IMG/VR virus record: IMGVR_UViG_3300032331_002637
Span: 1-64,000 of that record
Reading direction: 5' to 3' (one strand)
Length of the DNA: 64,000 bases
Source: an uncultured virus (IMG/VR IMGVR_UViG_3300032331_002637)
Lineage: Duplodnaviria > Heunggongvirae > Uroviricota > Caudoviricetes
The position numbers and the translations under genes were made by a program. How positions within the stretch are numbered: position 1 is the stretch's first letter; the number at the start of each line of letters is the position of its first letter. The notes beneath the pieces were generated by a model that was not told the origin of the DNA, made no database searches, and saw only the letters and a list, made by a program, of their open reading frames with translations. This document shows positions 3,867-23,101 of the stretch, piece by piece.

Positions 3867-4601
3867 ATGAAATTAAAATATGCTGTAGTCAGCTCCGATT
3901 CAAATCCTGAATATCTTGATTTTTGGCCTTACGTAGCTAAAGCATGGAAAAGAATAGGTATAGAACCAGTACTACTTTATATTGATAAACAAACTCCACC
4001 AGAGAGCGTACATGAACATGGAAAGGTAATATATCTTGAATCAATATCTGAATGGAGTATAGCTCAACAAGCACAATGTATAAGATTTTGGGCAGCTAAG
4101 CTATTAGATGCTCCTTTTATAATATCAGATATTGATATGCTTCCTATTTCTGAAGAATATTATAAAAATGGTGTGGCTTCCATTGGAGATAAAGGTATAG
4201 TTTCTTACAGCTCTGATATTATTAAATATAGATGGTATGTAACTAATCCACAATACCCTATGTGTTATCTTGCAGGAGACACACAAAGCTTTATTGATCT
4301 ATTAGAAATGAATGATAATTCTCATCAGAATTTTTTAAGAAGATTAATGAAAATGAATATAAGATTTGGTACAGATCAGAAGTTCTTTTATAATCAATCT
4401 GTTAAAAATAAACACATATCTATTAAGCATTTAGAAAGAGGATGGATAGAAGAGAAATATGCTAGAGGAAGATTGGATAAAGTGATCTGGCCAAAAACAG
4501 ACTATAATGCAGATGAATATATAGATTGTCATTTACCAAGACCGTTATCCTCAAATATTGGGATTTGTAAAGAATTATTTAATAAAATTAGAATATATTA
4601 A
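3867..4601 (+). CDS. Putative glycosyltransferase-like protein
   Basis: IISDIDMLP DxD motif, GTDQ, YIDCHLPRP; operon context. Confidence 0.55.
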   Translation: MKLKYAVVSSDSNPEYLDFWPYVAKAWKRIGIEPVLLYIDKQTPPESVHEHGKVIYLESISEWSIAQQAQCIRFWAAKLLDAPFIISDIDMLPISEEYYKNGVASIGDKGIVSYSSDIIKYRWYVTNPQYPMCYLAGDTQSFIDLLEMNDNSHQNFLRRLMKMNIRFGTDQKFFYNQSVKNKHISIKHLERGWIEEKYARGRLDKVIWPKTDYNADEYIDCHLPRPLSSNIGICKELFNKIRIY

Positions 4602-5411: not shown

Positions 5412-5414
5412 TTC

Positions 5415-6575: not shown

Positions 6576-7485
6576 AAAAATATTAATAACAGGAGGTACA
6601 TCACATTTAGCTGAAAGTCTAAAAAAATATTTACCTAATGCTTCTTATATAGAAGGAAGATCTGAATTAGATCTAACTGATTATCAATCAACATTAGAAT
6701 ACTTTAAAAATGAATCTCCGTATTGGGTTTTACATTTAGCAGCTAAAGTTGGTGGTATTAAAAGTAACATGGAAAATCCTTTTGAGTATTTCTATGACAA
6801 TCTATTAATTAATACTAATGTTTTTAGAGCATGTAAAGAATTAGAAATAGAAAGATTAACCTCTATATTATCAACATGTGTATATCCAGCAGATAATGTT
6901 GAATATCCAATAACTGAAGATAATATTATTTTAGGTGATCCAGAAAAAACAAATAGAGGTTATGCTCAATCTAAAAGAATATTAGCAGAACTCACTGATC
7001 TTTATAATCATAAATACGGAAAAAATTATAATTATATTATTCCTTGTAATCTTTTTGGTATGGAAGAATCATATGATCCTAATAAAACACATTTTCTTAC
7101 ATCATTGATTTATAAATCTGCTAAAGCATTATCCAATGGGAATAAAGAACTTGAAATGTTTGGTAGCGGTAAAGTTCTAAGACAATTTGTAACGTATGAC
7201 GATTTTGCAAGAATGTTAGCTTATTGTGTTGACAACGAAGTCACTGAATCTTTTAACTTTTCTCCTGATTATAATTTATCATTAATTGAATATGGAAGTA
7301 TTATAGAGAATATCACTGATAAAAAAATTAAGGTTACATTCAACGGTAATGGACCTGACGGGGTATACAGAAAAGATGCAGATAATTCAAGAATGAAAAA
7401 AATAGCACCTGATTTTGAATTTAGTGTACTAAGAGAAAGTATAAAAGAAGTATTAGATTTTTATTTAGCAAATGATAGCATTTAG
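6568..7485 (+). CDS. fcl: GDP-L-fucose synthase / GDP-colitose synthase-type epimerase-reductase
   Basis: ILITGG, HLAAKVGGIKSN, STCVYP, YAQSK (YxxxK), PCNLFG, GSGKVLRQF, PDG. Confidence 0.9.
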   Translation: MNKKILITGGTSHLAESLKKYLPNASYIEGRSELDLTDYQSTLEYFKNESPYWVLHLAAKVGGIKSNMENPFEYFYDNLLINTNVFRACKELEIERLTSILSTCVYPADNVEYPITEDNIILGDPEKTNRGYAQSKRILAELTDLYNHKYGKNYNYIIPCNLFGMEESYDPNKTHFLTSLIYKSAKALSNGNKELEMFGSGKVLRQFVTYDDFARMLAYCVDNEVTESFNFSPDYNLSLIEYGSIIENITDKKIKVTFNGNGPDGVYRKDADNSRMKKIAPDFEFSVLRESIKEVLDFYLANDSI

Positions 7486-8212
7486 TCACTTAGGAAAATA
7501 TGGTAAATTGGGCAATCAGCTTTTTCAAATTGCTGTTGTTTATTCACATTGTACTAGAAATGGCAAAGAATTTATTTTCCCTGAGTGGAAATATAATTCC
7601 TATTTAAAAACACCAATTAGAACAGGATCAATACCACCAGGACTAATTTTACACAGAGAAAAAGATCCTTTTTCTTTCACACCTATTCCTAATATAGATA
7701 ACATTGATCTCATTGGATATTTTCAGAATGAGAATTATTTTAATGGAGAAGAGGACACGATAAGGGATCTTTTAGAACCAGCAGATTTTGTAAAATCTAA
7801 AATAGAAGAAATAAATTTAGAAGGAATAACTGCTATACATGTAAGAAGAGGAGATTATCTAAACTTCCCTTTACATCATCCTATACCTCCTATGGATTAT
7901 TATAATAGATCAATAGAAAATTTAAAAGATAAGACTAATAACTTTATGATTTTCTCTGATGATATCGGATGGTGTAAAGAAAACTTTCCCTCCGATTTTT
8001 TATTTTCCGAGGAGAAAGATGAGTTTATAGACCTTTATAAAATGTCTAGATGTGCTAATTTTATAATCGCGAATTCAAGTTTTTCTTGGTGGGCATCATT
8101 CTTAAGCAGATCCGAAAATAAAATAATATATGCTCCTGAAAATTGGGTAGGAAGAGGATACTCAGGTACTAGCTGGAGACAAGTTTACAGAAAAGAAATG
8201 AAAATAATATAG
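7472..8212 (+). CDS. GT11 alpha-1,2-fucosyltransferase-like
   Basis: GKLGNQLFQ, GYFQNE, HVRRGDY, FSDDIGWC, IANSSFSWWA. Confidence 0.93.
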   Translation: MIAFSHLGKYGKLGNQLFQIAVVYSHCTRNGKEFIFPEWKYNSYLKTPIRTGSIPPGLILHREKDPFSFTPIPNIDNIDLIGYFQNENYFNGEEDTIRDLLEPADFVKSKIEEINLEGITAIHVRRGDYLNFPLHHPIPPMDYYNRSIENLKDKTNNFMIFSDDIGWCKENFPSDFLFSEEKDEFIDLYKMSRCANFIIANSSFSWWASFLSRSENKIIYAPENWVGRGYSGTSWRQVYRKEMKII

Positions 8213-8216
8213 TATA

Positions 8217-9080
8217 ATGGGAAAAGAAACAATAGGTATTATAGGACAAGGATTTGTCGGATCTGCTGTTAGGGAAGGAATGGAAAAATATTTTGATGTT
8301 ATATGTTTTGATAAGGATCCTAATAAATTTAGCAATTCGGTATCTGTATTTAATGTTGTAGAGAATAGTGTATTATGCTTTTTATGTGTCCCAACTCCTA
8401 TGAAAAAATCGGGGGAATGCGATTTAAGTATAGTTAATAAAGCCCTTAATGAAATTTATGAATGTACTACATCTTTAAATAAAAACCAATATATAGTAGT
8501 GATAAAATCCACTATACCACCAGGAACTACTAGTAAATTAAATTTAGAATTCCCAAATATTTCCATTGTTTTTAATCCAGAATTTTTAACGGAGGCTAAT
8601 TCTGTTAATGATTACTTAGAACAAAACCGAATAATTATAGGTGGAGACAGACCAGCATCATCGAAAGTTAAGATGATTTTTTCTAAAGCATTTCCCCGTA
8701 TACCTATAATTAAAACTAGCTCCACTATTGCAGAGACTATTAAGTATGTAACTAATACATTTTTAGCAATGAAGGTTTCGTATGCTAATGAAGTTTATCA
8801 GATATGTCAGGAATTAAATATAGATTATGATAAAGTTATAGAATACTCAAGATATGATGATAGACTTGGAAATTCACATTGGTCGGTTCCTGGACCTGAT
8901 GGAGATTTTGGCTTTGGTGGACATTGCTTCCCTAAAGACTTAGCTGCTTTTGAATTTATTGCAAAAGAAATGGGTATAGATACAATAATGTTAACTGCTG
9001 CATTAGATAAAAATAAAAAAGTAAGAAAAAACCTAGATTGGGTTAAACAAGTAGGAAGAGCAGTATCGTTAGAAGAATAA
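8217..9080 (+). CDS. ugd: UDP-glucose/GDP-mannose dehydrogenase family, short form without the C-terminal domain
   Basis: GQGFVG, CVPTP, KSTIPPGTT, FNPEFLTE, KYVTNTFLAMKVS, GFGGHCFPKD. Confidence 0.88.
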   Translation: MGKETIGIIGQGFVGSAVREGMEKYFDVICFDKDPNKFSNSVSVFNVVENSVLCFLCVPTPMKKSGECDLSIVNKALNEIYECTTSLNKNQYIVVIKSTIPPGTTSKLNLEFPNISIVFNPEFLTEANSVNDYLEQNRIIIGGDRPASSKVKMIFSKAFPRIPIIKTSSTIAETIKYVTNTFLAMKVSYANEVYQICQELNIDYDKVIEYSRYDDRLGNSHWSVPGPDGDFGFGGHCFPKDLAAFEFIAKEMGIDTIMLTAALDKNKKVRKNLDWVKQVGRAVSLEE

Positions 9081-9081
9081 T

Positions 9082-9699
9082 ATGAAAATACCAGGAATAG
9101 ATAATATTTATTGCATAAATCTAGAAAGGAGACCCGATAGAAGGAATGAAGCTACGGAAGAATTTAAAAGATTTGACCTTGATTTTGAATTTTTTAACGG
9201 CGTCGATGGACATGAATTAAAAGTAAACTCTAGAATAAAACCTGGACACGTAGGATGTGTTATGTCACATCTTAATCTTTATAGATATCTTAAAGAACAA
9301 AAGGGAGATATCTTTATGATAACAGAGGATGATGTTGTCTTCGATGAAAATTTCATATCTAGTTATTTAGATGTAGTAAGACATGTTCCTTCTGATTGGC
9401 ATCTTTTATATTTAGGTGGTAACCATAACGGAATGCCATTAAACATAATAGCACCAAATATACACAGGTTGCAAAAAACATATACTACTCATTGTTATTT
9501 AGTTAAAAAGACACATCTAGATATTTTGATCAAACAATTTGATACTCCTCATATTTTCTATAACGAGGTTGATGTACATTTAGCCCATTTACAATCAAAA
9601 GTACCTTGCTATGGATTTACTCCGTCAATAGCTTGGCAAAGAGATGGATTCTCTGATATAGAAATGAAAAACGTTGAATATAATTTTTTAAAAAAATAA
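9082..9699 (+). CDS. GT25 glycosyltransferase
   Basis: YCINLERRPDRR, GVDG, GCVMSH, EDD, LLYLGG. Confidence 0.9.
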   Translation: MKIPGIDNIYCINLERRPDRRNEATEEFKRFDLDFEFFNGVDGHELKVNSRIKPGHVGCVMSHLNLYRYLKEQKGDIFMITEDDVVFDENFISSYLDVVRHVPSDWHLLYLGGNHNGMPLNIIAPNIHRLQKTYTTHCYLVKKTHLDILIKQFDTPHIFYNEVDVHLAHLQSKVPCYGFTPSIAWQRDGFSDIEMKNVEYNFLKK

Positions 9700-9700
9700 A

Positions 9701-10639
9701 ATGGAAAATACATTTATCTTTACTGAAGCTTTTAATTGTGGAAAGATACTAGCGATTTGCCTAGAATCTTTTCATAGACACCACGATTTAAAAGTACATA
9801 TAATTGGTACATCTAGAGATTTCGAAGAAGCAGGTGATATCATAAATCATCCTAATAATGTTTTAATTAATTGGGATTCTAATGCAGCTGCAAAAGAAAA
9901 ATGGTCCACAGGTCACCAAGGAACTGCACTTGCTTTTGCAACTGCTATGAAAGGAAATATACATTCTGATAAATTTGTAATACATCTTGACTCTGATTGT
10001 TATTTTAAAGGCGAGTGTATATCCGATATAACTTCTATGCTAAATAACGGATATGATATAGTAGGTTCTCCTAGGCCTTATAAGAATAATCTAAGTGGGG
10101 TAAAGGGATTAGATAACACACCCGATTGTGTTTCTACATATTTAATGGGTGTAAATACACATAAGATACCTAATTATGATTTTGATATGTTTACAAGAAT
10201 GTGTGGAGGATGGGCTTCTCCTACTGGACATAGAGTTCTAGATTTCTTTGATCCTGTTACCCATGCAATAATAACAAACGGAGGAAGAATAGGATTTCTA
10301 GACACATACAAATATGGTGGTATAGATTTAAATGGATCTAAGAATAATGGATTTGAATCGAATCTTAATTTTGACTGTGGATCACATATTGCTCATTTTG
10401 GGGGGGTAGGATCAGGTAAAGCAGTTGCTGATAATTTATCTGAGCCACCAAAAGGATATGCTGATTGGGCTTATTACAGATGGAATTTTTTCTCGCATAT
10501 ATTCTTTAACACTGAAGCTTTAGAAAGCCCAGTAGCAGTATATTCATCACCCTCAGATCATCAAGGTAAAAGATGGTGTAACGGTGCAGCAGATTCTTCT
10601 ATAATAAATAACGCAAAAAAAGAACTTAATTTAAACTAA
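9701..10639 (+). CDS. Putative GT-A fold glycosyltransferase
   Basis: VIHLDSD DxD motif, HFGG; operon context. Confidence 0.5.
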   Translation: MENTFIFTEAFNCGKILAICLESFHRHHDLKVHIIGTSRDFEEAGDIINHPNNVLINWDSNAAAKEKWSTGHQGTALAFATAMKGNIHSDKFVIHLDSDCYFKGECISDITSMLNNGYDIVGSPRPYKNNLSGVKGLDNTPDCVSTYLMGVNTHKIPNYDFDMFTRMCGGWASPTGHRVLDFFDPVTHAIITNGGRIGFLDTYKYGGIDLNGSKNNGFESNLNFDCGSHIAHFGGVGSGKAVADNLSEPPKGYADWAYYRWNFFSHIFFNTEALESPVAVYSSPSDHQGKRWCNGAADSSIINNAKKELNLN

Positions 10640-10640
10640 A

Positions 10641-11444
10641 ATGATAAAGCCAATAGTACAGGATCTAATATTAAAAGGATGGGGTGTGGATCCTGATACA
10701 TATTTTGGAGAATATAATAAAAGAGTAGCTATAGAAATAGATCCTTTTCGTGATCCACATTGGATAAATGATGAGTCTTTATTTAAAGTAGTAGTTCAAG
10801 TTGAACCTCCGTCTGTAACTAATAAAGCAGTAGAACAGTATCTTGATGAGGAGGGAAATAAATTCGATCTTATTCTTACATATTATTCTTCTATTCTTAA
10901 ATCGAACAAGAAAGCTAAACTTTTTTATTTCGGTGACTCTTGGATAAAGAAGAAAAGCGAATCTATAGATAAAACAAGAAACGTTTCATTTGTAACATCT
11001 AACAAGAATTTTACTCCTGGGCATGCTGTAAGAATGAAGGTAGTTGATTCTCTTCACTTAGGATTAGCTAGATTTGATTTATATGGTAGGGGATTTAATC
11101 CTATAGAAAAAAAAGAAGAGGGACTTAATGACTATAAATTCTCTATAGTAATTGAGAATGAGTTTATGGAAAATTGGTTTACTGAAAAAATAGTCGATTG
11201 CTTTAGAACTAAAACAATCCCGATCTATAAAGGATGTCCTAATATTAAAGATTTCTATAATGAGAAAGGAATAATAAAATTTGATACTATGGAAGAACTT
11301 TACTCGATATTAAATGACATAAATTATAACGGGGATTCAATTTATGATTCGATGAGAGATTCAATGGAAAATAATTATAATAAATCATGGGCAGATCCTA
11401 CATTTAATGAAAGGGTAGAGATAGAGATAAAAAAATATTTATAG
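10641..11444 (+). CDS. GT10-like (alpha-1,3/4-fucosyltransferase-type) glycosyltransferase
   Basis: FVTSNK, DLYGRG, YKFSIVIEN...WFTEKIVDCF...IPIYKG. Confidence 0.85.
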   Translation: MIKPIVQDLILKGWGVDPDTYFGEYNKRVAIEIDPFRDPHWINDESLFKVVVQVEPPSVTNKAVEQYLDEEGNKFDLILTYYSSILKSNKKAKLFYFGDSWIKKKSESIDKTRNVSFVTSNKNFTPGHAVRMKVVDSLHLGLARFDLYGRGFNPIEKKEEGLNDYKFSIVIENEFMENWFTEKIVDCFRTKTIPIYKGCPNIKDFYNEKGIIKFDTMEELYSILNDINYNGDSIYDSMRDSMENNYNKSWADPTFNERVEIEIKKYL

Positions 11445-11456
11445 TGCGTTAATATC

Positions 11457-11993
11457 ATGAATAAGATTATAATTACAGATTTCGATGGAATTTTTACATC
11501 TCCGGGTTTTATTTACACAAAAGATGGAAAGATAGGTAAATTATTTTCACCTAATGACGGAGGAATTTATCATTTATTATTAGATAATTTAGAATATTTT
11601 GGATTATCGGATGTAATTATATTAACAGGTGAGGATAAATATGAGGGACTTGAAGTCACTGAAAAAAGACTAAGTGATCTTGGTCTTTTAAATAAGCTTA
11701 ATTTTTCCCCTGGTAAAGAAAAATATAATTGGATAAAATCTAGATATAAAATGAATGATGTAATATATTTTGGAGACGACCTTTATGATATAAATATTTT
11801 TAGCGAGTGCTTTTATTCTTGTACTCCTTTGCATTCACCGCTTATATTAAAACGAAATTCTTCTTATTCTTCTGGCTATAAAGGAGGAGAAGATGCTTTC
11901 ACTGACATGATCACACATGTTACAGAAGAAATTCTAAATAAGAGCATCACAGAAATAATAAATAAACAAAAAAAATATGATACTAAATCTTGA
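11457..11993 (+). CDS. kdsC: KdsC-like HAD phosphatase (Kdo-8-P phosphatase family)
   Basis: ITDFDGIFT, F..NDG, ILTG, YFGDDLYD, GGEDAF. Confidence 0.75.
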   Translation: MNKIIITDFDGIFTSPGFIYTKDGKIGKLFSPNDGGIYHLLLDNLEYFGLSDVIILTGEDKYEGLEVTEKRLSDLGLLNKLNFSPGKEKYNWIKSRYKMNDVIYFGDDLYDINIFSECFYSCTPLHSPLILKRNSSYSSGYKGGEDAFTDMITHVTEEILNKSITEIINKQKKYDTKS

Positions 11994-12585
11994 AAACATA
12001 GAAAGTAAATTTAATAATTTACTAAAATCTCCGGAATATAAAGAATTTATTAAGCAGATAAAAGAAGCAAAGAACATATACCTTGTTGGCAATGGAGGTC
12101 TTTGGTCAACAGCAAACCATGCTGCAGATGATTGCAATAGATTACTTACTAAAGCAGGAATTAATAAGATGTTTATTTCTATGGACAGTCAATGTCTAAT
12201 TACATCCGTAGCAAATGATTATGGGTACAACAATATATTTGTTAGATGGCTAGAACTTTTGAAAAAAAATAACACTAAATCATCAGAAACTATGGTTATA
12301 GGTTTATCCTGTTCTGGTACATCAAAAAATGTCATATCAGCTTTGCATTGGGGTAAAGAGAATGGATATAAGACATGTTTAATTTCTGGTCAGAAATCTG
12401 CAGTTATACCCGAAGATATGTTAGAGGTTTGTTTTGATACTGAATTTTTTCACACAACAGAAGTTTTATCTCTTATATTATTTTACCAAATAATCATTGA
12501 ATGTGGAGCTTCCTGTCCATCAATAAAAGAAGAAATTATAAGAAAAGGTGCTTCACAGCCATTAACAAGGCCTACAGACGAATAA
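11977..12585 (+). CDS. gmhA: GmhA-like SIS sugar-phosphate isomerase
   Basis: LVGNGG..STANHAADD, ITSVANDYGYNNIF, GLSCSGTSKNV. Confidence 0.75.
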   Translation: MILNLENIESKFNNLLKSPEYKEFIKQIKEAKNIYLVGNGGLWSTANHAADDCNRLLTKAGINKMFISMDSQCLITSVANDYGYNNIFVRWLELLKKNNTKSSETMVIGLSCSGTSKNVISALHWGKENGYKTCLISGQKSAVIPEDMLEVCFDTEFFHTTEVLSLILFYQIIIECGASCPSIKEEIIRKGASQPLTRPTDE

Positions 12586-13421
12586 TGTCATCTAAACAAT
12601 TTTCTGATATAATAGATAAAGAGAAAGGTAAGATTGGGCTAGTAATGGGATTAGGTCCTAGCTTAAAATTTGCTATACCCTATATAAAAAAACTTAAGAA
12701 TAAAAAAATTTCTAAAATATCATGCAACAATATAGATGTAATGTGTGATATTAAAATTAATTACTGGATACTTGCCCAGCCGACTGATTATCAGAATCCT
12801 TTACATATACCACTAGCTAAAGAAAGATATAATAAAATGGGTGCTACATTTCTTTATACTGATTGTCTCGATTTAACACCAAGAGATGAGGTTAAAGAAA
12901 TGTTAAATTCTATAGATTATATAGGATATGATCAAAGGCATATTAATTCCGAAAAATGTGGATGGTTAGATGTTCACGGAAGACCACCTTCCTGTTGTAA
13001 TGGTATTATAGATGGAAGACTTTGTATACAAGAAGAATTTCAAAAATATACTGGAAGTGATTATAAATACGGTGCTGGTGATACTGTTGGTGTTCATATG
13101 GTTGCTTTAGCTGTTATGTTAGGATTAAATCCTATCTACATATCAGGTATAGATTTAGATTATACTAATGGATATTTTAATAATGACTTTGAAGGTGAAG
13201 ATGGAACCAAAAAATTAGGAATGAGAATAGGTGAAAGAATAAAAATGGGAATGGATAGTATAAATAACTCTCCAGACATGGTAGACAGAATAATAATAGA
13301 CCTAACAATAATTAATGAATCTGCTAAAAAAATTGGTATTAAAATATATAATACAAGCAAAGAATCAAGACTCAGCGAGGTCTTTGATTATTTTGATATA
13401 AGTAAACTTTTAATAAAATAA
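12585..13421 (+). CDS. GT42 (CstII)/Maf-like ulosonic-acid transferase (start revised to 12585)
   Basis: MGLGPSL, SCN, GVHMVALAVMLGLNPIYISGIDLDY, matching CstII GNGPSL and GVYMCAVAIALGYKEIYLSGIDFY; ATG overlaps the upstream TAA. Confidence 0.72.
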   Translation: MSSKQFSDIIDKEKGKIGLVMGLGPSLKFAIPYIKKLKNKKISKISCNNIDVMCDIKINYWILAQPTDYQNPLHIPLAKERYNKMGATFLYTDCLDLTPRDEVKEMLNSIDYIGYDQRHINSEKCGWLDVHGRPPSCCNGIIDGRLCIQEEFQKYTGSDYKYGAGDTVGVHMVALAVMLGLNPIYISGIDLDYTNGYFNNDFEGEDGTKKLGMRIGERIKMGMDSINNSPDMVDRIIIDLTIINESAKKIGIKIYNTSKESRLSEVFDYFDISKLLIK

Positions 13422-13425
13422 GGGT

Positions 13426-14202
13426 ATGAGTAATTATCCTGAATGGGATTCATCCGCAGTAAATCCTGATATTTATATAGAAAAATATACCGATTACGTA
13501 AAAACTTCTGAGCTCCGAGAAATATTAGACGGAAAAACAGTAGCTATAGTTGGACCTTCATCTCATATATATGGACAAAATCTTGGTAATTATATAGACT
13601 CATTCGATGTTGTAGTGAGAGTGGGATTTTTAGAAGAACCTACAGAAATAGCTATGAAAGACTACGGTAGTAGAACCGATATAATAATACATTCATTTAA
13701 CTCATTTGAAATACCAGTTGCTTCCAGAAATATAGGTTACCTTTCTAAGTGTAAGCACATTATATGTGGAATGGTTTCTAGTGATTTTATAGATGACCAT
13801 AAATCTTTTTTTGATTCTTTAAGAGCAATAGGTATTAAAGTACAAAATGTAGACGATAGCTATTTATACGGATTTTTTAGAAGTGTTGGAACAATATGTA
13901 ATCTAGGAACAGTAGGAATAGAAATTATTCTTAAGTATGAAATTAAATCTCTTTTTGTTACTGGTATAAACTTCTATAACATGGGAAAATACGGTAAGGT
14001 ATACAACGAGGAATATTTCAATGTTGTTTCATCTAAAATGGGAGTTTACAAGAATGAACTTAATGGAATAGTTACTGGTATTTCAGCAAGATCTGATTTG
14101 CATTCGCAGAAACCTCAGATAGAGCATTTTAAATCAGTAGCTAGATCTGATGATAGAGTATTGTTGGATAAATATTTAGAAAATAATTTATTCGTTTCTT
14201 GA
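13426..14202 (+). CDS. GT29-like sialyltransferase-fold protein
   Basis: Sialylmotif-L-like VAIVGPSSHIYGQNLGNYIDSFDVVVRV...DYGSRTD; S-like LGTVGIEIIL...LFVTGINFY; late His (HSQKPQIE). Confidence 0.8.
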   Translation: MSNYPEWDSSAVNPDIYIEKYTDYVKTSELREILDGKTVAIVGPSSHIYGQNLGNYIDSFDVVVRVGFLEEPTEIAMKDYGSRTDIIIHSFNSFEIPVASRNIGYLSKCKHIICGMVSSDFIDDHKSFFDSLRAIGIKVQNVDDSYLYGFFRSVGTICNLGTVGIEIILKYEIKSLFVTGINFYNMGKYGKVYNEEYFNVVSSKMGVYKNELNGIVTGISARSDLHSQKPQIEHFKSVARSDDRVLLDKYLENNLFVS

Positions 14203-14787
14203 TCCTCCCCACCATACTAATTCATAATGAAATTTTGTATTGAATCCTAATTTATTTAGATCCTTTATAATTCTGTACATATATCCTTTTTTAATCCCCT
14301 TGTTTCTGTGGAATTGTATTTGTATATTTTGTACAAGGTCTAGACATTTATTTTCTATAAGATAAGGTACTAGGTCATATTCGTATCCTTCAATATTGAT
14401 CATTAGTACTGCTATTCTTTGATCTTTTATAAAATCTTTTGCGTCTTTGATTAATATTACTTCTTCACCTTCATTTGATATTGATGATCCATCTTCATCT
14501 AGATTTATTTTATTCTCTTTATTCTCTAGTCCTAATGCAAAATTGTGCACCTTAATTTTTTCTGGAAATACCACATACTCTATGAAGCTTTTTATTGGCT
14601 CGAATCCTATTCCATTACATCCATATTTATTGTACATATCAATAAGCCATTGACCTTTGTATGCACCAATATCTACTATTAGATCATCTGGACCTAAATT
14701 GTAATTCCTTAAATGATTCTGATCTCCCGAATCTCCGAACCATCTCTCAATGGTGCTTCTAAATTCGTTATCCTGTTTTGTACTCAT
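14188..14787 (-). CDS. FkbM-family methyltransferase
   Basis: VDIGAYKG, FEP, NFALG, INIEGYEY, IQIQFH. Confidence 0.88.
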   Translation of the reverse strand: MSTKQDNEFRSTIERWFGDSGDQNHLRNYNLGPDDLIVDIGAYKGQWLIDMYNKYGCNGIGFEPIKSFIEYVVFPEKIKVHNFALGLENKENKINLDEDGSSISNEGEEVILIKDAKDFIKDQRIAVLMINIEGYEYDLVPYLIENKCLDLVQNIQIQFHRNKGIKKGYMYRIIKDLNKLGFNTKFHYELVWWGGSRNE

Positions 14788-15932
14788 AGAATAGATTTTT
14801 TTATAATTTCTAAAGCTTCTTTAACCTCTTCGTCTTTTACTGCTAAATTTGGCCTAATTCTAATTGATGTATCGCCTGCAGAATTAACAAGTAATCCATT
14901 GTTTTTAGATCTAATGATAAAAGAATTTCTTTGTTCTTGATTTTTAAAATCGAAAGCTACCAACAGCCCACAAGATCTAACATTCATTAGACCAATTTCT
15001 TCTAGTCCTGTGTGTAATTTATATCCTTGTTTTATAGCATTACCTTTAAGATCTTTTTCTTTAATTGCTTTAATTATGTATGTGGACCTAATCATATCAA
15101 TAATATCACCATCCCATGTTACACAATATCTTGAAGGGTCTATAACTTTATCTGATATCTTTTGTATAGCCATTGCGCCAGATACCTGTGATTTTTTACC
15201 AAATATTAAAATATCTGGTTTATATCCATTATTTTCAAAGTACCACGTTTTACCCGAAGTACAAAATCCTGTTTGTATCTCATCATAAATAAGAGGTATA
15301 TCATATTTGTCTGCTATTTCTCTTAGTCCTTTAAAAAAACTCAAAGAATAATAAATGTCACCGTTTGTACATTGTATAGGCTCGAATAATATAGCAGATA
15401 TAGAAGGGTCTTTTTTAATTGAGTATTCTAAATCAACAAGGTCATTAAACTTTGGCCATACATTATCTCCTGGAAATCCGTTAAGTCTTTCGTAAACTCC
15501 TCCTTCTCTACCAGTTACTATATTTCCGTACGATGTTATTCCGTGAAAGCTTTTATTGTGGGATATTACCTTTGGGTTTTTTTTATCTGAATATTCAAAT
15601 GCCATCTTTACCGCATGTTCAACTGCAAGTGATCCAGTGCAAGTAAAATGCGGATTTTTAAAAATACTAAATGAAGAAAATTCCATAAAATCTTTTTCAA
15701 AAATTTCCCTTTCATCCGATGTATGCTCACAATTTGTTACTCTAATACCTGCCCATTTATTTACTGATTCTAAAAATTCTGGCCTCTTAAATACTTCATG
15801 ATTATATCCTAAAGCAAGTGAAGAATACATTGACATAAAATCTAAATAATTCTTTCCATCTAACTGATTATGTAAATAGCTATCCTGTGATTTTTTAGGA
15901 TCTATTTTTAAGTTGTATATGCTGTTTATCAT
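14784..15932 (-). CDS. Class III PLP aminotransferase (lysine-6-aminotransferase-like)
   Basis: YLDFMSMYSSLALGYNH, TGSLAVEHAVK, SFHG, EPIQ, DEIQTG, FGKKSQ, IRIRPNL. Confidence 0.9.
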   Translation of the reverse strand: MINSIYNLKIDPKKSQDSYLHNQLDGKNYLDFMSMYSSLALGYNHEVFKRPEFLESVNKWAGIRVTNCEHTSDEREIFEKDFMEFSSFSIFKNPHFTCTGSLAVEHAVKMAFEYSDKKNPKVISHNKSFHGITSYGNIVTGREGGVYERLNGFPGDNVWPKFNDLVDLEYSIKKDPSISAILFEPIQCTNGDIYYSLSFFKGLREIADKYDIPLIYDEIQTGFCTSGKTWYFENNGYKPDILIFGKKSQVSGAMAIQKISDKVIDPSRYCVTWDGDIIDMIRSTYIIKAIKEKDLKGNAIKQGYKLHTGLEEIGLMNVRSCGLLVAFDFKNQEQRNSFIIRSKNNGLLVNSAGDTSIRIRPNLAVKDEEVKEALEIIKKSIL

Positions 15933-17047
15933 ATTTTTGTAATATCACCCGTGTATATGTGATCAACATCTTCTCTAGAAACTGCTAATCTGATAGCTGG
16001 CACATTCCCTGTAGCCTCTATTCTATGAATTCTATTTTTTTCTATAAAAACTATATCGCCTTCTTTAACATGTTTATTTACCCCCTCTATTTCAAATATC
16101 CATTCGCCTTTAATAATTAGCCACCATTCGTTCCAATCTGCATGATAATGTCTTCTATTACCTTCTCCTGGATTTTGACATATTAGACAAGCGCTGTTGC
16201 TTTCAGTATTTACTAATCTTTTACTCCATGATTTTTGGTCCATTGAATTTATAACATCATATATGTTTAAAATCTCTTTATTCGAATCATTTAAATCGTT
16301 ATATTCTACACCATCTTTAGCCAATATACTAGGAACGTCATTTTCTTTATGAAAATCTATAGAATCTTTTTCTTTCCTTTGTATATGTTCTGCTATTATT
16401 TCTGCAATATTAAAATCTTCTTCGTTGTCAATGTCGACTGTTGAAAATCCTTTTAATTCAAAAGTGTCCTTTGGATAATCTCCCCCGTGATATGCAGCTC
16501 CATACATTTTCATGTTTTTCTTGTATTCTTCTGTGGTCCATGCCATTAATGAACATGCATAAGCTTTTATGGGTTCTAAATCTTGTGAAGGTGGTGTTAT
16601 CTTAGTGGGATCAAAGTTAATAGGATTATCTTTATAAATAGATTCTATTTGTACATTTTTAACTGATATTAATGTATTAACATCTCCTTTTTTAATTCTT
16701 TCGACAAATGCTATTATTTCTTCCGGGGTAATAAAAGGTGAAGTTGGTAATATTTGAACTAAAATATCACAATCTACTTTATAAATAAACTCTTGAGCAA
16801 AATGATCATTTGTAGCATCATCGCTTGAGAGATGCTCTGGCCTTTTATGAAATTTTATACCGCTTTTTTCTGCAATTTCTTTGAATATATCAGACTCTGA
16901 ATTTATGTATATTTCATCAAAAACACCGGATGCTTTAACTGCATCAATTGGATATTGAATTAGTTTTTTGCCTAATATCTTTCTAAGATTTTTTTTAGGA
17001 ACTCTTTTGCTACCCATTCTTGCGGGAATCATTGCTACTATTTTCAT
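15929..17047 (-). CDS. NeuA-type acylneuraminate/Kdo cytidylyltransferase fused to a C-terminal cupin
   Basis: IPARMGSKRVPKKN, LPTSPF, VDIDNEEDF; cupin HYHADWNEWWLIIKG...GDIVFIEKNRIHRI. Confidence 0.9.
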   Translation of the reverse strand: MKIVAMIPARMGSKRVPKKNLRKILGKKLIQYPIDAVKASGVFDEIYINSESDIFKEIAEKSGIKFHKRPEHLSSDDATNDHFAQEFIYKVDCDILVQILPTSPFITPEEIIAFVERIKKGDVNTLISVKNVQIESIYKDNPINFDPTKITPPSQDLEPIKAYACSLMAWTTEEYKKNMKMYGAAYHGGDYPKDTFELKGFSTVDIDNEEDFNIAEIIAEHIQRKEKDSIDFHKENDVPSILAKDGVEYNDLNDSNKEILNIYDVINSMDQKSWSKRLVNTESNSACLICQNPGEGNRRHYHADWNEWWLIIKGEWIFEIEGVNKHVKEGDIVFIEKNRIHRIEATGNVPAIRLAVSREDVDHIYTGDITKI

Positions 17048-17064
17048 ATGTAAGTAATTTAGTT

Positions 17065-17107
17065 TATATATTTTACTCGAAACCTATATGATTATTTCAT
17101 GTATAAT
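17065..17107. promoter_or_regulatory. Divergent promoter region inside the glycan island
   Basis: AATATATA on minus (17072..17065); GAAAC(17079)-N18-TATAAT(17102) on plus. Confidence 0.55.
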
Positions 17108-17122
17108 AATAAAAAAAATAAT

Positions 17123-17752
17123 ATGAACTTAAATAAACAAGAAGATGAGTACAACTGGAAAAATTACACTCCGGAATATTCCGATCAATTAATAGGAATG
17201 GTTAAAAACGAGGGTTTTGATTTTTTTGTAAAAAACTACGAAATAATTAACGACAGCCCAGTTTTTCATGATAATTTAGTTAGTAACTGGAAAGAAATAT
17301 ACTCTCTTATTTATAAAATAAATCCTAAGAGTATTTTTGAATTCGGGTGTGGTGCTTGTTATCATTTAAGAAATATTATGACATTATGCCCTGATATTAA
17401 AGTTTCTGGAGCGGATTATCTAGGAACACAGATAGAATTCGGTAAAGAATTTATTCCAGAGGGTATGGAATTTCCTAAAAATGTATCTGTTAGAGATTTA
17501 ACAGAAGATGTATCAGATATACCTAAAGCAGAATTAGTCTATTCACAAGCAGTAGTTATGCACTTAAACTCAGAGAAGGCTGTAAAAATGATGCAGAACA
17601 TGGGTGAGGTAGCAGAAAAATATATAATAATGGTTGAGGGCGTAAGGAATCACGAGAATTGGTATGAGCTTGTTAATTATGCTTTACCAGATTGGAAAAT
17701 GACTTTAACTAATAATTACATTGATTACGGTATAATATTAGAAAGAAAATGA
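17123..17752 (+). CDS. Class I SAM-dependent methyltransferase (start probably 17123)
   Basis: IFEFGCGACYHL, GAD, YSQAVVMHL; the 17099 ATG lies within the putative promoter. Confidence 0.8.
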   Translation: MNLNKQEDEYNWKNYTPEYSDQLIGMVKNEGFDFFVKNYEIINDSPVFHDNLVSNWKEIYSLIYKINPKSIFEFGCGACYHLRNIMTLCPDIKVSGADYLGTQIEFGKEFIPEGMEFPKNVSVRDLTEDVSDIPKAELVYSQAVVMHLNSEKAVKMMQNMGEVAEKYIIMVEGVRNHENWYELVNYALPDWKMTLTNNYIDYGIILERK

Positions 17753-18918
17753 AAAATGTAAAATTGGTATCAGACACAATATCAAAAAATGATATAGAAA
17801 AACTAGTGACGTGGATGTCACAAGATGATATACCACAATTAACAAAAGGTCCTTTAACAATAAAATTTCAGAATGACTTCTCTAATTTTTTAGGTGAAGA
17901 TTTAAGAAGCTGTTTTATTAATTCGGGATCATCTGCTATTCTTTTATCTCTTCTTGCTCTTAAGATAAAGAACAATATAAAAAAAGTTGTTGTACCTTCA
18001 GTTTCTTGGGCAACGGATTTAAGCAGTCCTATGGTTCTTGGATTAGAAACTATATTGTGTGATTGTAACTTACAAGATCTATCATTAGATCTGGACAAAT
18101 TAGAAAAAATCTTTCAGGAAGAAAGTCCAGAGGTTTGTATATTAGTTTCTGTATTAGGATTAGTGCCTGATATGGAGCGTATAATGAGTCTTTGTAAGAA
18201 ATATAGCGTTATTCTTTTGGAAGATGTTTGCGAGAGCTTAGGATCAAAATATAAAGGTGATTACCTTGGAACTTTTGGTCTTATGTCATTCTTTTCTTTC
18301 TATTATGGTCATCATATAAGTACCATAGAGGGAGGAATGATTACAACAGAAGATAAAAACATGCATGATATTTTAGTTTCTATACGTAATCATGGATGGG
18401 ATAGAGATTGGAGTGAGGATCTAAAAAAAGAATATCGAGAGAAATACGGAATTGATTCTTTTTCTAGCATGTATGCTTTCTATTTTCCTGGACTAAATCT
18501 CAGATCTACTGATCTTCAAGCATTCCTAGGAATAAATCAGATAGAAAAAATAGAACCTTTTTCCTCAGTTAGAAATAGAAACTTTCTTAAATATTCGGAA
18601 CTTATAAAAGAAAACTATTTGAACGTTAATCAGAGAGATGGCGATTTCGTTTCTAATTTCGCTTATCCTGTAGTACACTCAGAAAGAGCTTCAATCATTG
18701 CTAAGATTAAAGAGCATAATATAGAAGTTAGACCTCTTATTGCAGGATCTATGGCTAAGCAACCATTTGCAACAGGGGTTAATAAAAAATATGGAACTGG
18801 TAATTCTGATATAATTCACGAGAAAGGATTTTATTTACCTAATCACCAGGATTTATCTTTAGAGCAGGTTGAGTTCATTGCATCTTTGGTTAATTCAGAA
18901 AAAAATAATTTAAAATGA
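17749..18918 (+). CDS. colD: DegT/DnrJ family, ColD-like GDP-4-keto-6-deoxymannose 3-dehydratase
   Basis: [37 protein letters not shown] (His at the usual Schiff-base Lys position), RNHGW, RPLIAG; no Fe-S Cys cluster. Confidence 0.8.
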
Positions 18919-19922
18919 AAAAAGCTATAATAACAGGAGTTAACGGGCAAGACGGAAGTTATCTTGCTGAACTCCTTCTCGATAAAGGATATGAAGTACA
19001 CGGTACTATTAGAAGATCCTCATCTTTTAATACATGGAGAATAGATCATATTAGATCTCATGAAAATTTTCATTGGCACTATGCTGATGTTACAGATCCT
19101 GTATCTATTAGTAACCTTATATCTAGAATAAAGCCAGAAGAATTTTATAATTTAGCTGCTCAAAGCCATGTTAAAATTTCTTTTGAAATTCCTTACTATA
19201 CAGGACAAGTTGATGCTATAGGAACACTTAATGTACTTGAAGCAATAAGAACGCATTCGCCAATTACTAAGCTTTATCAAGCATCAACATCAGAACTTTA
19301 TGGAAAAGTTCAAGAAATACCACAGAATGAAAATACACCTTTTTATCCAAGAAGCCCTTATGGAGTTGCTAAGCTTTATGGATTTTGGATAATAAAAAAC
19401 TACAGAGAAGCATACGACATATTTGCATGCAACGGAATTCTTTTTAATCACACATCGCCAAGAAGAGGAGAAAACTTTATGGAGAAAAAGATTGTAGATT
19501 CTCTTGTAGCTATTCACAAAGGGGGTAAAGAAATTCTTAAGCTTGGGAATCTTGATGCTAAAAGGGATATTGGTCATGCTAAAGAATATGTTGAAGGCAT
19601 GTGGAGAATGCTTCAACAAGAAACCCCCGAAGATTTTGTTCTTGCTACTGGTATGTGTTTTTCTGTAAGAGAAATAGTTGAAACCGTTTATCAAATTTTA
19701 GGTAATAAAATAAGATGGGAAGGGGAAGGACTAGAAGAAAAAGGTTTAGATGTGGAAACTGGAAAAATCGTAGTTTCTATAGACCCTAAATATTTTAGAC
19801 CTTCGGAGGTTGATCTACTAATTGGTAATCCTAAAAAAGCTAAAGATATTCTTGGGTGGGAAAGTAATAGCACAATTGGGGGAATTTTAGAAGAGATGGT
19901 TAACGAGCAAATCAAAAAATAA
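18915..19922 (+). CDS. gmd: GDP-mannose 4,6-dehydratase
   Basis: [61 protein letters not shown]. Confidence 0.97.
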
Positions 19923-20509
19923 TGGACTATAAAGGTTTAATTGAAAAAGAAATAGAGTATTTAAGAAAGATACCAACCGAAAGAATTGGCGATATAGTAA
20001 GAATAATAAATTCAAATCTAAAAAGCGGAAGAATAATAACTTCCGGTATGGGAAAGGCAGGACAAGTTGCTAATACCTTTGCAACTACACTCTGCTCTAC
20101 AGGAACCCCTTCTTTTTTTCTACATCCTGCAGAAGCTCAACATGGAGATCTTGGTATGATAATGCCAGGAGATATAATTATAGTTTTTAGTAACTCAGGA
20201 AAAACTAGAGAAGTTATAGAGCTTATAGAACTTGTACATTCTTTAGAATATAATAATATTATATTTGGTGTTATAGGAAAAAGAAATGCTCAATTAGATC
20301 TAATATTTGCAGATTATATTGAATTTGGTGAGGTGGAAGAAATATGTCCTCTTGGATTAACACCAACCACTTCAACAACTTGTATGTCAGTTATTTGTGA
20401 TCTTATGGTAGTTGGAATAATGGCTAATAAAGAATTTACCAAAGAAGAATACGCAAAATTCCATCATGGCGGATATTTGAATTTAAAGGCTAAAGGAATT
20501 TCTAATTAA
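19922..20509 (+). CDS. kdsD: Arabinose-5-phosphate isomerase (KdsD/KpsF), SIS domain only
   Basis: SGMGKAG, STGTPSFFLHPAEAQHGDLG, SNSGKT, CPLGLTPTTSTT, FHHGGYL; no CBS pair. Confidence 0.9.
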   Translation: MDYKGLIEKEIEYLRKIPTERIGDIVRIINSNLKSGRIITSGMGKAGQVANTFATTLCSTGTPSFFLHPAEAQHGDLGMIMPGDIIIVFSNSGKTREVIELIELVHSLEYNNIIFGVIGKRNAQLDLIFADYIEFGEVEEICPLGLTPTTSTTCMSVICDLMVVGIMANKEFTKEEYAKFHHGGYLNLKAKGISN

Positions 20510-20527
20510 GATAATTTAATAATAGAA

Positions 20528-20986
20528 ATGAATAAAACGATAGGAATTACTTGCTCTACTTTTGATCTTTTACATACTGGACATATAATTATGCTAGAGG
20601 AGTGTAAAAAATACTGCGATTATTTAATATGCGCAATACAAGTTGATCCCTCATTAGATAGAATTGGAAAAAATAAACCAGTGCAGTCTTTAATTGAAAG
20701 GTACATACAATTAGATGCTGTTAAGTATGTTGATAAGATTATACCATACACTAATGAGAAAGAGCTTGAATTAATATTTATGTCATTAGATTTAGACGTT
20801 AGAATTATAGGTGAAGAATATAAGGATATAGATTTTACAGGTAAGAATATTTGTATAAAAAGAAATATTAAATTAATATACAATAAAAGGGAGCATAATT
20901 TTTCTACAACTAATTTAAGAAAATCAATATACTTAAATGAATTAAATAAAGAATTAGAAAAAAATAATAAGCCGGATGGAAATTAA
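20528..20986 (+). CDS. TagD-like (glycerol-3-phosphate) cytidylyltransferase family
   Basis: TFDLLHTGH (HxGH), KNKP, VKYVD, R.HNFSTT. Confidence 0.88.
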   Translation: MNKTIGITCSTFDLLHTGHIIMLEECKKYCDYLICAIQVDPSLDRIGKNKPVQSLIERYIQLDAVKYVDKIIPYTNEKELELIFMSLDLDVRIIGEEYKDIDFTGKNICIKRNIKLIYNKREHNFSTTNLRKSIYLNELNKELEKNNKPDGN

Positions 20987-21764
20987 ATATAATAAGATTC
21001 TTATAGCAGGTCCTTGCGTAATTCAAAGTTGGGACACTTGTTATGAGATAGCTATTGAAATTAAAAGATGTGCACTTCTGTATAATTTTACACCTATCTT
21101 CAAAGCAAGTTTTGATAAAGCTAATAGAACTTCGTCTAATGGATTTAGAGGCGTTGGTATAGATAAAGGATTAGATATACTATCTAAGATCAAACAGAGG
21201 CTAGATATACCTGTTATAACGGATGTACACGAAACTGAACAAGTTGAGCAAGTAGCATCAGTTGTGGATTACTTACAAGTTCCTGCTTTTTTGTCTAGAC
21301 AGACAGATCTTATTGAAGCATGTGCTAAAACAGGATTACCTGTGTTAGTTAAAAAAGGACAATTTCTTTCTCCTGAAAGTTGTAAATTCATTGAGGATAA
21401 ATTTTACAAAGCTGGGGGTACACAATTACTAATAGGTGAAAGGGGTAACAGCTTTGGGTATAATGATTTGATAGTTGATGTCACATCAATTTCTAGATTA
21501 AAAAAATCCTGCGAAAATTCAAAGATTATAATGGATTGCACACACAGTCTGCAAAGACCCAATGGAATTTACGGAAAGACAGAAGGGAGAGGTGATATGA
21601 TCGAAGAGATGGTAAAATATGCTTCAGTAATGAATGCTGATGGAATATTTATAGAAACACATCCATACCCAGAACTCTCCCCGTCGGATTCTGAAAATAT
21701 GTTAGAACTTAGTAAATTTGAAAATATAATAAAAAAATCAAGATCGATATATGATACCCACTAA
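20976..21764 (+). CDS. kdsA: Kdo-8-phosphate synthase, metal-dependent type
   Basis: IAGPCV, FKASFDKANRTS, TDVHE, QVPAFLSRQTDL, KKGQFLSP, ERGNSFGYNDL, DCTHSLQRP, FIETHP. Confidence 0.95.
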   Translation: MEIKYNKILIAGPCVIQSWDTCYEIAIEIKRCALLYNFTPIFKASFDKANRTSSNGFRGVGIDKGLDILSKIKQRLDIPVITDVHETEQVEQVASVVDYLQVPAFLSRQTDLIEACAKTGLPVLVKKGQFLSPESCKFIEDKFYKAGGTQLLIGERGNSFGYNDLIVDVTSISRLKKSCENSKIIMDCTHSLQRPNGIYGKTEGRGDMIEEMVKYASVMNADGIFIETHPYPELSPSDSENMLELSKFENIIKKSRSIYDTH

Positions 21765-22467
21765 ATTAATGGATATAGTGATTGTTAGCTATGCTAAAGA
21801 TGACTACTGTAAGGGTTTAACTGAAAATTGTATAAAGTCAATTCTAGAGTCAGAAAATTATTCTGAGAAGCTATTTAATATAATTGTTGTTGAATCTGAA
21901 CCTGGTGTAAAATGGGAACATCTATCCGATATAGTTCACACATTTGAAGCTCCTTTACCTTATGGTTATCACAAATTTCTTAACTTTGGTAGAAAGCAGG
22001 GAAATTCACAATTCGTTGCTCTCTGTAATAATGATTTAGAATTTAAAGAAAAATGGTTTACTAATATAATGAAAGCATCTGTTATGGAATCTGATGTCAT
22101 ATCATTTTCTCCTATATGTCCGATGACTCAGACAATTTACGAGATATACGAGCACTCAGGAAATATTGAAGGATACGAAATAAGAAAACATATATCTGGA
22201 TGGTGTATAATACACAAGAGGGAAATTTATAATATAATTGGGGATCTTGATGAAAGATTTCATCATTGGTTCTGTGATAATGATTATTCAATGGAGCTTC
22301 AATATCATGGACTTAAACACATGCTTGTCACTGATTCAATTGTGATACATCACGATAAAAATATAGGAAAAACCACAGAAAGAGTTATAACTGATAGAAA
22401 TCAGATGTATGATATGACTAGTGGTTCTTTGCCTATCTTTCAAGAAAAATGGAGAAATAAAATATAA
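21751..22467 (+). CDS. GT2 glycosyltransferase
   Basis: DIVIVSY, LNFG, LCNND, GWCII, IGDLDERF, FCDND. Confidence 0.85.
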   Translation: MIPTKLMDIVIVSYAKDDYCKGLTENCIKSILESENYSEKLFNIIVVESEPGVKWEHLSDIVHTFEAPLPYGYHKFLNFGRKQGNSQFVALCNNDLEFKEKWFTNIMKASVMESDVISFSPICPMTQTIYEIYEHSGNIEGYEIRKHISGWCIIHKREIYNIIGDLDERFHHWFCDNDYSMELQYHGLKHMLVTDSIVIHHDKNIGKTTERVITDRNQMYDMTSGSLPIFQEKWRNKI

Positions 22468-22477
22468 AATATAAAAT

Positions 22478-23101
22478 ATGAAAAGATATGAAATGATCAA
22501 CCGTGTTATCGAATCAAAAGGATACACGAATTATTTAGAAATAGGAGTGAGAGACGGTGAATGCTTCAAAGAGATTTGCTGTAAGAATAAAACCGGGGTG
22601 GATCCTAATCCCACTAGTGATCATACAACACATATAATGACTTCTGACGATTTCTTTTATGAATTAGACGAGAATTCTATGTTTGATGTGATATTCATTG
22701 ATGGGTTACACTTAGATCATCAAGTAAATAAAGATATTGAAAATTCATTAAAGCATTTAAAAGAAGGTGGAACTATACTTCTTCATGATTGTAATCCACC
22801 AACTAAATATCATGCTGCAGAATCCCCTGTTTATTCTGCACCTGCTAACGGTGATTGGAATGGTACTGTGTATCTTTCCTTGATTAATTTAAGATTATAC
22901 AGAAATAATTTGAGATTAAGAACGGTGGATTCTGATTGGGGAGTTGGCTTATTAACAAAAGAGACGAGCGAGACTTTAAATGCTTTTCCTAATGATGCTA
23001 TGTCATGGGAATTCTTTTACGAAAACCGACAAGAAATACTCGATTTAGTTACAGTTGATGAATTTATTAATCTTTATCCTGTCAATCTTCTAGTTGACTA
23101 A
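22478..23101 (+). CDS. Class I SAM-dependent methyltransferase (Methyltransf_24-like)
   Basis: YLEIGV, GVDP, FDVIFIDGLH, GGTILLHDC, WNGTVY, DWGVG. Confidence 0.88.
   Translation: MKRYEMINRVIESKGYTNYLEIGVRDGECFKEICCKNKTGVDPNPTSDHTTHIMTSDDFFYELDENSMFDVIFIDGLHLDHQVNKDIENSLKHLKEGGTILLHDCNPPTKYHAAESPVYSAPANGDWNGTVYLSLINLRLYRNNLRLRTVDSDWGVGLLTKETSETLNAFPNDAMSWEFFYENRQEILDLVTVDEFINLYPVNLLVD

Follow-up and report, generated by a model that had tools for sequence, protein, structure and literature searches.

The question raised by this locus is whether a phage that encodes an arabinose-5-phosphate isomerase (KdsD), a 3-deoxy-D-manno-oct-2-ulosonate 8-phosphate (Kdo-8-P) synthase (KdsA), a KdsC-like phosphatase and a cytidine monophosphate (CMP) transferase beside two sialyltransferase-fold transferases makes and transfers CMP-Kdo. 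The genes are located in a glycosylation island (positions ~3244 to 23101) of the window, which covers positions 1 to 64,000 of a linear, 119,756-base record of an uncultured virus (IMG/VR IMGVR_UViG_3300032331_002637), with an estimated completeness of 43% and a T4-like gene content (baseplate, tail, primase, helicase, split DNA polymerase, topoisomerase and ribonucleotide reductase). In relatives, the island lies directly to the right of a prohead protease and a gp23-like capsid gene and to the left of the baseplate genes. A first-pass annotation had read these genes as an apparently complete CMP-Kdo pathway, without NeuB, NeuC or WaaA, in which sialyltransferase folds had been repurposed as Kdo transferases. 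All the open reading frames (ORFs) that it named are present in the window; its observations were partly confirmed and its interpretation is partly supported.

Comparison with other loci points to two modules, namely KdsD and KdsA, which are fixed in the phage lineage, and a mobile cassette (NeuA-like/cupin protein, class III pyridoxal-phosphate (PLP) enzyme, GmhA-like isomerase, HAD, GT29 and GT42) that would make, CMP-activate and transfer an ulosonic acid other than Kdo, probably an aminated C7 compound. We give this two-module reading an even chance: gene content, folds, motifs and co-occurrence are observed, and from these we infer substrate, product and acceptor. The features concerned are the following.

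11457..11993, plus strand: HAD protein of KdsC/2-keto-3-deoxynononate-9-phosphate (Kdn-9-P) phosphatase type (weak model matches), in the phosphate-removing slot of the cassette
11977..12585, plus strand: GmhA-like sugar-phosphate isomerase of SIS type, a core member of the cassette (40 of 41 viral lineages)
12585..13421, plus strand: GT42/Maf (CstII-fold) transferase, from predicted structure and profile; ORF extendable to an ATG at 12501
13426..14202, plus strand: GT29-fold transferase with an L-motif-like stretch and an invariant His226, without membrane anchor
14188..14787, minus strand: FkbM-family methyltransferase, in the inverted block of the CMP-transferase
14784..15932, minus strand: class III PLP enzyme akin to lysine 6-aminotransferase, lacking Glu243 (38 of 41 viral lineages)
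15929..17047, minus strand: NeuA-like cytidylyltransferase of the SQ subfamily, from profile matches and motifs, with a C-terminal metal-binding cupin
19922..20509, plus strand: KdsD, arabinose-5-phosphate isomerase, SIS domain only, lineage-conserved module
20976..21764, plus strand: KdsA, metal-type Kdo-8-P synthase, from NCBIfam score and metal ligands, lineage-conserved module
21751..23101, plus strand: GT2-like transferase and methyltransferase, constant neighbours of KdsD-KdsA at the right edge of the island

Two modules and their distributions

The comparison drew on 57 viral and 80 cellular loci that encode homologues of the CMP-transferase; viral loci with KdsA numbered 12 at first and 80 later. 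The 57 viral loci represent 41 lineages at 95% NeuA identity, and neighbours were counted within ~10 kb. In these 41 lineages, the CMP-transferase is accompanied by the SIS protein in 40, the PLP enzyme in 38, GT29 in 30, a GT42-like protein in 20 (GT29 or GT42 in 34), an AroB-like protein (TIGR04425) in 29 and a short-chain dehydrogenase/reductase (SDR) in 29; KdsA and KdsD are each found in one lineage and NeuB in two. KdsA adjoins the cassette in 0 of the 80 cellular loci. Reciprocally, the ten other records of the window's lineage that carry KdsD and KdsA are all devoid of a CMP-transferase (CTP_transf_3 in 0/10), and in five of these, which have whole islands with both flanks, neither KdsC nor, in a search run without a positive control, GT29 was found. 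A whole-record search of 45 cassette records, from which nine near-duplicates had been left out, detected the KdsA/DAHP-synthase family (DAHP, 3-deoxy-D-arabino-heptulosonate 7-phosphate) in 2/45 and NeuB in 3/45, one of these being a cross-match, with no match to either in the two records that are more than 90% complete. A PF00793 match in record G016, considered as a second KdsA-linked cassette, turned out to be DAHP-synthase-like. Given these nearly disjoint distributions, it is not supported that KdsD, KdsA, HAD and CMP-transferase form one co-inherited CMP-Kdo unit; synthase, phosphatase and activator are not inherited together, so that the complete pathway originally proposed is rejected as a single unit, and its apparent completeness is likely a coincidence of neighbourhood. 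The island is variable but bounded on its right by a constant KdsD-KdsA-GT2-methyltransferase group, and two sister phages carry the cassette in it as a passenger. The block from GT25 to the NeuA-cupin gene recurs in an independent metagenome contig (L315) with 93-99% protein identity, and the arrangement is therefore not an assembly artefact.

Taken on their own, KdsD and KdsA are as first annotated. KdsD is an SIS-only isomerase that matches the KpsF/GutQ model at E=3e-42, below the model cut-off. KdsA passes NCBIfam NF003543 (309 bits, cut-off 242) and scores below TIGR01362 (294 bits, cut-off 314); its C14, KANRT (48-52), H190, E227 and D238 are invariant in 6/6 aligned relatives, the ligands C14, H190, E227 and D238 line up with those of the metal-dependent Aquifex enzyme, and the motif is KANR(S/T) rather than KPR(S/T). 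The two enzymes likely raise Kdo-8-P, which would be completed by the KdsC and KdsB of the host and then used by a different transferase. A candidate for this partner, judged from its sequence and position, is the product of a GT42/MptE-like gene outside the island, 68-73% conserved, to the left of the head genes and beside an UvdE-like gene (L233:11876-12658; L234:4655-5446; L235:1501-2295; L236). It is present in G047, G048, G056 (a sister) and G058. The three records in which it was not found all begin within the head genes or to their right, as observed for G001 and G046 and deduced from coordinates for G057. The window record begins likewise, so that the corresponding position lies beyond its left end. 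The protein has no sequence match in the PDB and weak Pfam scores. If it is a Kdo transferase, the first-pass idea would be rescued through another gene. In a separate phage contig (L170:9061-12001), KdsA and KdsD have MptE/GT42-like genes on both sides, and no CMP-transferase was seen.

Enzymes of the cassette

The CMP-transferase proved to be of NeuA rather than KdsB type, as had been stated: by profile it is nearer to NeuA/PseF, with 99 bits against PseF and 31-59 bits against KdsB models, the latter over the N-terminal part only. It is on the minus strand, though, in a three-gene inverted block with the class III aminotransferase and the FkbM methyltransferase; this block and the GmhA-like SIS gene after the HAD had been passed over in the earlier reading. 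The NeuA motifs are retained, namely PARxGSKR..KN for cytidine triphosphate binding, Gln-x-TSP and the DID metal motif. However, SQ replaces RRQ, with the carboxylate arginine (R165-Q166), in 78/78 cupin-length proteins, a count that leaves out one long canonical protein and depends on a MAFFT alignment with canonical NeuA of the same loci, HMMER alignments to the mouse enzyme being out of register there; RQ is found in the 8 canonical NeuA proteins of these loci. In the cupin-length SQ proteins, AC also stands in place of the NG motif that follows in NeuA. In the Neisseria NeuA, this arginine was modelled on the carboxylate of N-acetylneuraminic acid, and its loss abolishes activity (PMC2901514). 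With SQ in place of the carboxylate-binding arginine, the sugar pocket would differ from that of NeuA, and the cupin-fused CMP-transferase is, by sequence, a distinct NeuA-like subfamily with a predicted altered pocket. The cassette counts at least 1652 protein clusters; no NeuA-cupin was found in cultured phages, whereas the cellular cassette has a cultured carrier in Alteromonas arenosi (L063). The SQ subfamily also occurs in loci of Gram-positive Lachnospiraceae that carry their own dehydrogenases. In a group of gut Firmicutes (L075, L076, L079, L097, L103, L105, L110), an SQ-type CMP-transferase without cupin is accompanied by an HMGL-like aldolase and a HAD, and KdsD-like genes are present in three loci of this group or its neighbour L109.

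The PLP enzyme reaches 228 bits against the L-lysine 6-aminotransferase model (cut-off 521). Equivalents of Lys300 (Schiff base) and Arg422 are kept in 62/62 proteins and Glu243 is replaced by Thr or Ser in 62/62; this loss and the score below cut-off rule out a lysine 6-aminotransferase function. In cellular loci the cupin and the PLP enzyme covary (20/38 vs 1/31), which suggests an isomerase/aminotransferase pair.

The HAD, first annotated as KdsC-like, is only weakly so: the KdsC model gives 35 bits for a cut-off of 107, and the best model is the Bacteroides Kdn-9-P phosphatase (54 bits, cut-off 180). Its TGE motif and Asp74 are invariant (TGE in 5/5). Nothing close was found in a search of viral contigs, and metagenome relatives share ~30% identity and have mixed, non-discriminating neighbours. 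That the HAD belongs to the cassette follows from a slot swap. Indeed, the sister record G001 is ~95% identical on both flanks and differs at 11443-11952, where an SDR and an AroB-like protein (TIGR04425) replace the HAD; KdsA and KdsD are 99-100% identical between the two, and CMP-transferase, PLP enzyme, GT42 and GT29 81-93%. Across the 41 viral lineages, the slot holds only the AroB-like protein in 27, only a HAD in 8, both in 2 and neither in 4; the HAD pattern missed at least one gene, in L133, which raises 'both' to 3. In 69 cellular loci, the AroB-like protein (24) and an inositol-monophosphatase-like protein (18) never occur together. The slot would thus remove a terminal phosphate, either by hydrolysis (HAD) or, presumably, by elimination and reduction (AroB-like protein and SDR). 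The AroB active-site motifs are kept in 57/57 aligned AroB-like (TIGR04425) proteins, and the substrate of AroB is a C7 ulosonate 7-phosphate.

For the two transferases, profiles and predicted structures agree with the sialyltransferase folds first assigned. The GT42/Maf-like protein (predicted local distance difference test (pLDDT) score 81) has CstII as its top Foldseek match (E=3e-8; TM-score ~0.5) and carries GxGPS and GxD motifs; the GT29-like protein (pLDDT 92) has ST8SiaIII and ST6Gal1 as top structure matches, a Pfam score of 23.2 bits at a cut-off of 23, and a profile match to ST6Gal1 at E=2e-8. Both would transfer a CMP-ulosonate to an acceptor. The idea of sialyltransferase folds repurposed for an ulosonate without NeuB is supported for a donor of CMP-ulosonate type; the donor of these two is probably not Kdo. 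Among the 33 nearest viral relatives of the window GT29, 32 have an SQ-type NeuA-cupin as neighbour and two, those of the sister records, have KdsA; because the search profile derived from GT29s of the cassette, this count retains some bias. Phage GT29 and GT42 folds that move Kdo, for which published precedent exists, look better backed by the GT42-like gene outside the island and by an operon of another phage group, in which a cupin, a KdsB-type synthetase, KdsA, an unassigned protein of 216 aa and a GT29-like gene form one run. There, GT29 is present in 16/73 loci, many of them near-duplicates (L173:9032-12161; L167, L169, L172, L174, L176, L179-L181, L183; further, L185-L187, L204, L225, L229), and NeuB was not seen within these loci. 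The GT29s of these operons form a separate clade (100/100) that has only the L-motif region in common with the window GT29, and this operon is a far better candidate than the window GT29 for a phage GT29 Kdo transferase. Other phage loci (L141, L145, L147, L152, L275-L278, L281, L288) combine a GT29-like protein and a CMP-transferase with an HpcH/HpaI aldolase, and not with NeuB or KdsA.

A proposed C7 ulosonate route and its alternatives

In the route that we propose, the skeleton would be a hept-2-ulosonate 7-phosphate, either DAHP of the host or a compound made from sedoheptulose 7-phosphate via the SIS protein. The HAD would hydrolyse the phosphate, while the AroB-like protein and SDR of the sister would eliminate and reduce, giving a 7-deoxy analogue. 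The cupin and the PLP enzyme may jointly add an amino group or deoxygenate, which is the weakest step; the NeuA-like domain would produce the CMP sugar, GT29 and GT42 would place it on a phage-built glycan, probably of the virion, and FkbM would methylate. The C7 reading is taken from the kept AroB motifs, from a cellular dehydrogenase/lactonase set beside the GmhA-like SIS and from a DAHP-synthase-like gene in L116. In cellular clusters, the GmhA-like SIS is accompanied by Gfo/Idh/MocA and 2-hydroxyacid dehydrogenases (40/69), a 6-phosphogluconolactonase (2) and a YhcH anomerase (11), a set that could lead from sedoheptulose-7-P through heptose-7-P and heptonate to hept-2-ulosonate. The two dehydrogenases are each encoded in 3/46 viral cassette records, so they were discarded as a general viral skeleton source; the viruses, mostly without them, would depend on the host for DAHP or for the enzymes. 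In L116 (7957-12112), the gene resembling DAHP synthase I-beta is directly upstream of the PLP enzyme, NeuA-cupin, SIS and HAD.

Several points weigh against this route. Of the cassette lineages, that of the window is the one in which KdsA occurs; its phosphatase has the KdsC/Kdn-9-P fold, whereas other cassette phages have small HADs, so that the enzymes may have been adapted locally to Kdo-8-P. As Kdo-8-P is also made by Gram-negative hosts, the absence of KdsA from other cassette phages is compatible with a C8 substrate. With dehydrogenases rare in viral cassettes, the route accounts neither for what the SIS protein does in viruses nor for the carbonyl needed for amination. The synthase of L116 has KPCT instead of the usual motif, with a second CMP-transferase beside or before it. 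Finally, the records are fragmentary and the counts, drawn from related lineages, non-independent; the incomplete HAD pattern and the alignment-dependent position of Arg165 must be added to this.

In an alternative reading, the cassette acts on Kdo-8-P, supplied by the KdsA of the phage in this lineage and by the host in others, and converts it to an amino- or deoxy-Kdo that is moved by GT29 and GT42, in parallel to the aminated ulosonate Kdo8N of Shewanella (KdnA/KdnB). In its favour, KdsD and KdsA are intact and 3-4 kb away, the HAD is of KdsC fold, class III enzymes such as NeoB aminate terminal sugar aldehydes, and Maf proteins are reported to move Kdo (bioRxiv 2020.06.03.131540). On the other side, no cellular locus (0/80) has KdsA nearby, the Lachnospiraceae loci with the SQ subfamily have dehydrogenases of their own, and AroB chemistry suits a C7 phosphate. 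Kdo-8-P phosphatases have TGR (Arg after TG), although no paper was found to confirm this, and the invariant TGE and Asp74 of the HAD argue mildly against coupling to Kdo-8-P. A Kdo-derived donor in the window phage is possible, yet we regard this explanation as a clear second choice, with something like one chance in five in its favour.

It is unlikely that the original version holds, with unmodified CMP-Kdo produced by KdsD, KdsA, the HAD and the NeuA-like enzyme and used by both transferases. All four enzyme types are present, and it would have precedent anyway: the predicted Kdo pathway of CroV has an activator that groups with NeuA (PMC9614988), and a putative Kdo transferase of plants, RCKT1, belongs to GT29 (PMC11288761). 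However, this version leaves no role for the PLP enzyme, the cupin and the second SIS protein, which are the constant partners of the activator, the cassette and KdsA are almost disjoint in distribution, and phages that do pair KdsA with a CMP-transferase use a KdsB-type enzyme (5/5 checked) and a different GT29 clade.

A similarly doubtful explanation places a NeuB-type synthase in the 57% of the genome that the record lacks, with a nonulosonic acid, for example Kdn, as the sugar of the cassette. In its favour, the record is incomplete and the HAD has its highest score with the model of the Kdn-9-P phosphatase. In agreement with the first annotation, family searches of the whole record, a 43%-complete linear fragment, found no NeuB, NeuC or WaaA (0/1 each); moreover, NeuB is encoded in 2/45 cassette records and in neither of the two near-complete ones, and among 11 cellular loci that encode both NeuB and an SQ enzyme, seven have a second CMP-transferase. 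Least probable of all is a true cyclisation by the AroB-like branch to a CMP-activated quinate-like (amino)cyclitol acid, as, despite the AroB motifs kept in 57/57 aligned proteins and the aminocyclitol logic of an SDR, an aminotransferase and a cyclase, the window has no cyclase and its CMP-transferase (84%) and GT29 (93%) nevertheless match those of the sister, so that both products should be ring-oxygen sugars transferable by a sialyltransferase fold.

The C7 route extends to a broader proposal, held a little more tentatively than the two-module reading itself: aquatic phages and bacteria would make a CMP-activated C7 amino-ulosonic acid without a NeuB- or KdsA-type condensing enzyme of their own, using a CMP-transferase subfamily without the carboxylate arginine; the tail would be switched between hydroxy and deoxy forms by a phosphatase or by a repurposed dehydroquinate synthase with a reductase, and the sugar would cap virion glycans. 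As part of the same tentative proposal, the window phage and its sister would be a natural matched pair for this switch.

Known systems and neighbouring genes

The window resembles the CMP-Kdo pathway (KdsD, KdsA, KdsC, KdsB; WaaA or GT73/GT99/GT107) in its bona fide KdsD and KdsA, with a HAD and a CTP_transf_3 enzyme nearby, and differs from it by an activator of a type other than KdsB, whose distribution does not follow that of KdsA, by the lack of WaaA, and by the additional PLP enzyme, cupin and GmhA-like SIS. With the sialic acid, Kdn, legionaminic and pseudaminic acid pathways (NeuB, NeuA, GT29/GT42) it shares the NeuA-type activator and the sialyltransferase-fold transferases; however, NeuB and NeuC are absent from this 43%-complete record, the carboxylate arginine is a serine, and a cupin is fused. 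The Shewanella Kdo8N system relies on a DegT aminotransferase and an Fe-ADH oxidase, both absent from the cassette. The cassette in its sister version is recognised by TIGR04425, a family annotated as AroB-related putative sugar phosphate phospholyase, for which no tested function was found. To our knowledge, the sialic-acid-like sugars described so far come from NeuB/KdsA-type synthases or aldolases.

Viral Kdo pathways have been predicted in silico in CroV (crov265-267) and Fadolivirus (PMC9614988), and kdsA and kdsB, also in silico, in cyanophage S-SCSM2R (PMC12801897). In these viruses, Kdo genes are likewise located inside a glycosylation cluster, S-SCSM2R uses KdsB, and no cassette of the window type is described. 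GT29 or Maf proteins have been linked with Kdo (Arabidopsis RCKT1, GT29, PMC11288761; Maf, PMC5811610 and bioRxiv 2020.06.03.131540), so that sialyltransferase-like folds can use CMP-ulosonates other than sialic acid; here the donor is probably not Kdo. Modified C7 ulosonic acids have been observed in microbial surveys (PMC8157484). No description of the cassette was found in the open-access literature, supplements excluded, and subscription papers on polysaccharide structures could hold the sugar. Viral Kdo genes and Kdo transfer by GT29 or Maf are thus already published, whereas the cassette appears to be an uncharacterised, widespread CMP-ulosonate system. If the proposal is true, it would represent a new route to a sialic-acid-like sugar without a NeuB/KdsA synthase, a new donor for GT29 and GT42 and probably a new monosaccharide of phage particles. 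As window and sister differ in one slot, the chemistry is directly testable with a few soluble enzymes. KdsA beside a CMP-transferase need not signify CMP-Kdo.

Two further features lie between or beside the modules.

17749..19922, plus strand: ColD-like DegT protein and Gmd, from family matches; YGHH motif, with His replacing the usual Lys
20528..20986, plus strand: TagD/RfaE-II-like HxGH nucleotidyltransferase, in most relatives a member of neither module

The His-for-Lys motif presumably identifies the DegT protein as ColD. Gmd, the ColD-like and the Fcl/ColC-like proteins (6568-8212, 10641-11444, 17749-19922), with GT11 and GT10, form a probable GDP-colitose/fucose route that is separate from the CMP-sugar-acid cassette. 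A UDP-glucose dehydrogenase-like protein (8217-9080, 287 aa) is without its C-terminal domain and is seen again in other viral islands; it was rejected as the missing oxidase of the cassette because it adjoins the cassette in a minority of loci only. Proteins of 206, 244 and 312 aa (window 3244-4601 and 9701-10639) have no Pfam or NCBIfam match, and those of 206 and 244 aa are kept at the left edge of the island in all relatives seen. No tRNA genes were found. Elsewhere in the record, a family B DNA polymerase is encoded in two genes 18 kb apart (G000:C1 89479-90882 and 109159-110331), and a MoxR-like ATPase with phrog_1314 partners is present in two sets (G000:C1 80391-85888 and 110375-113768).

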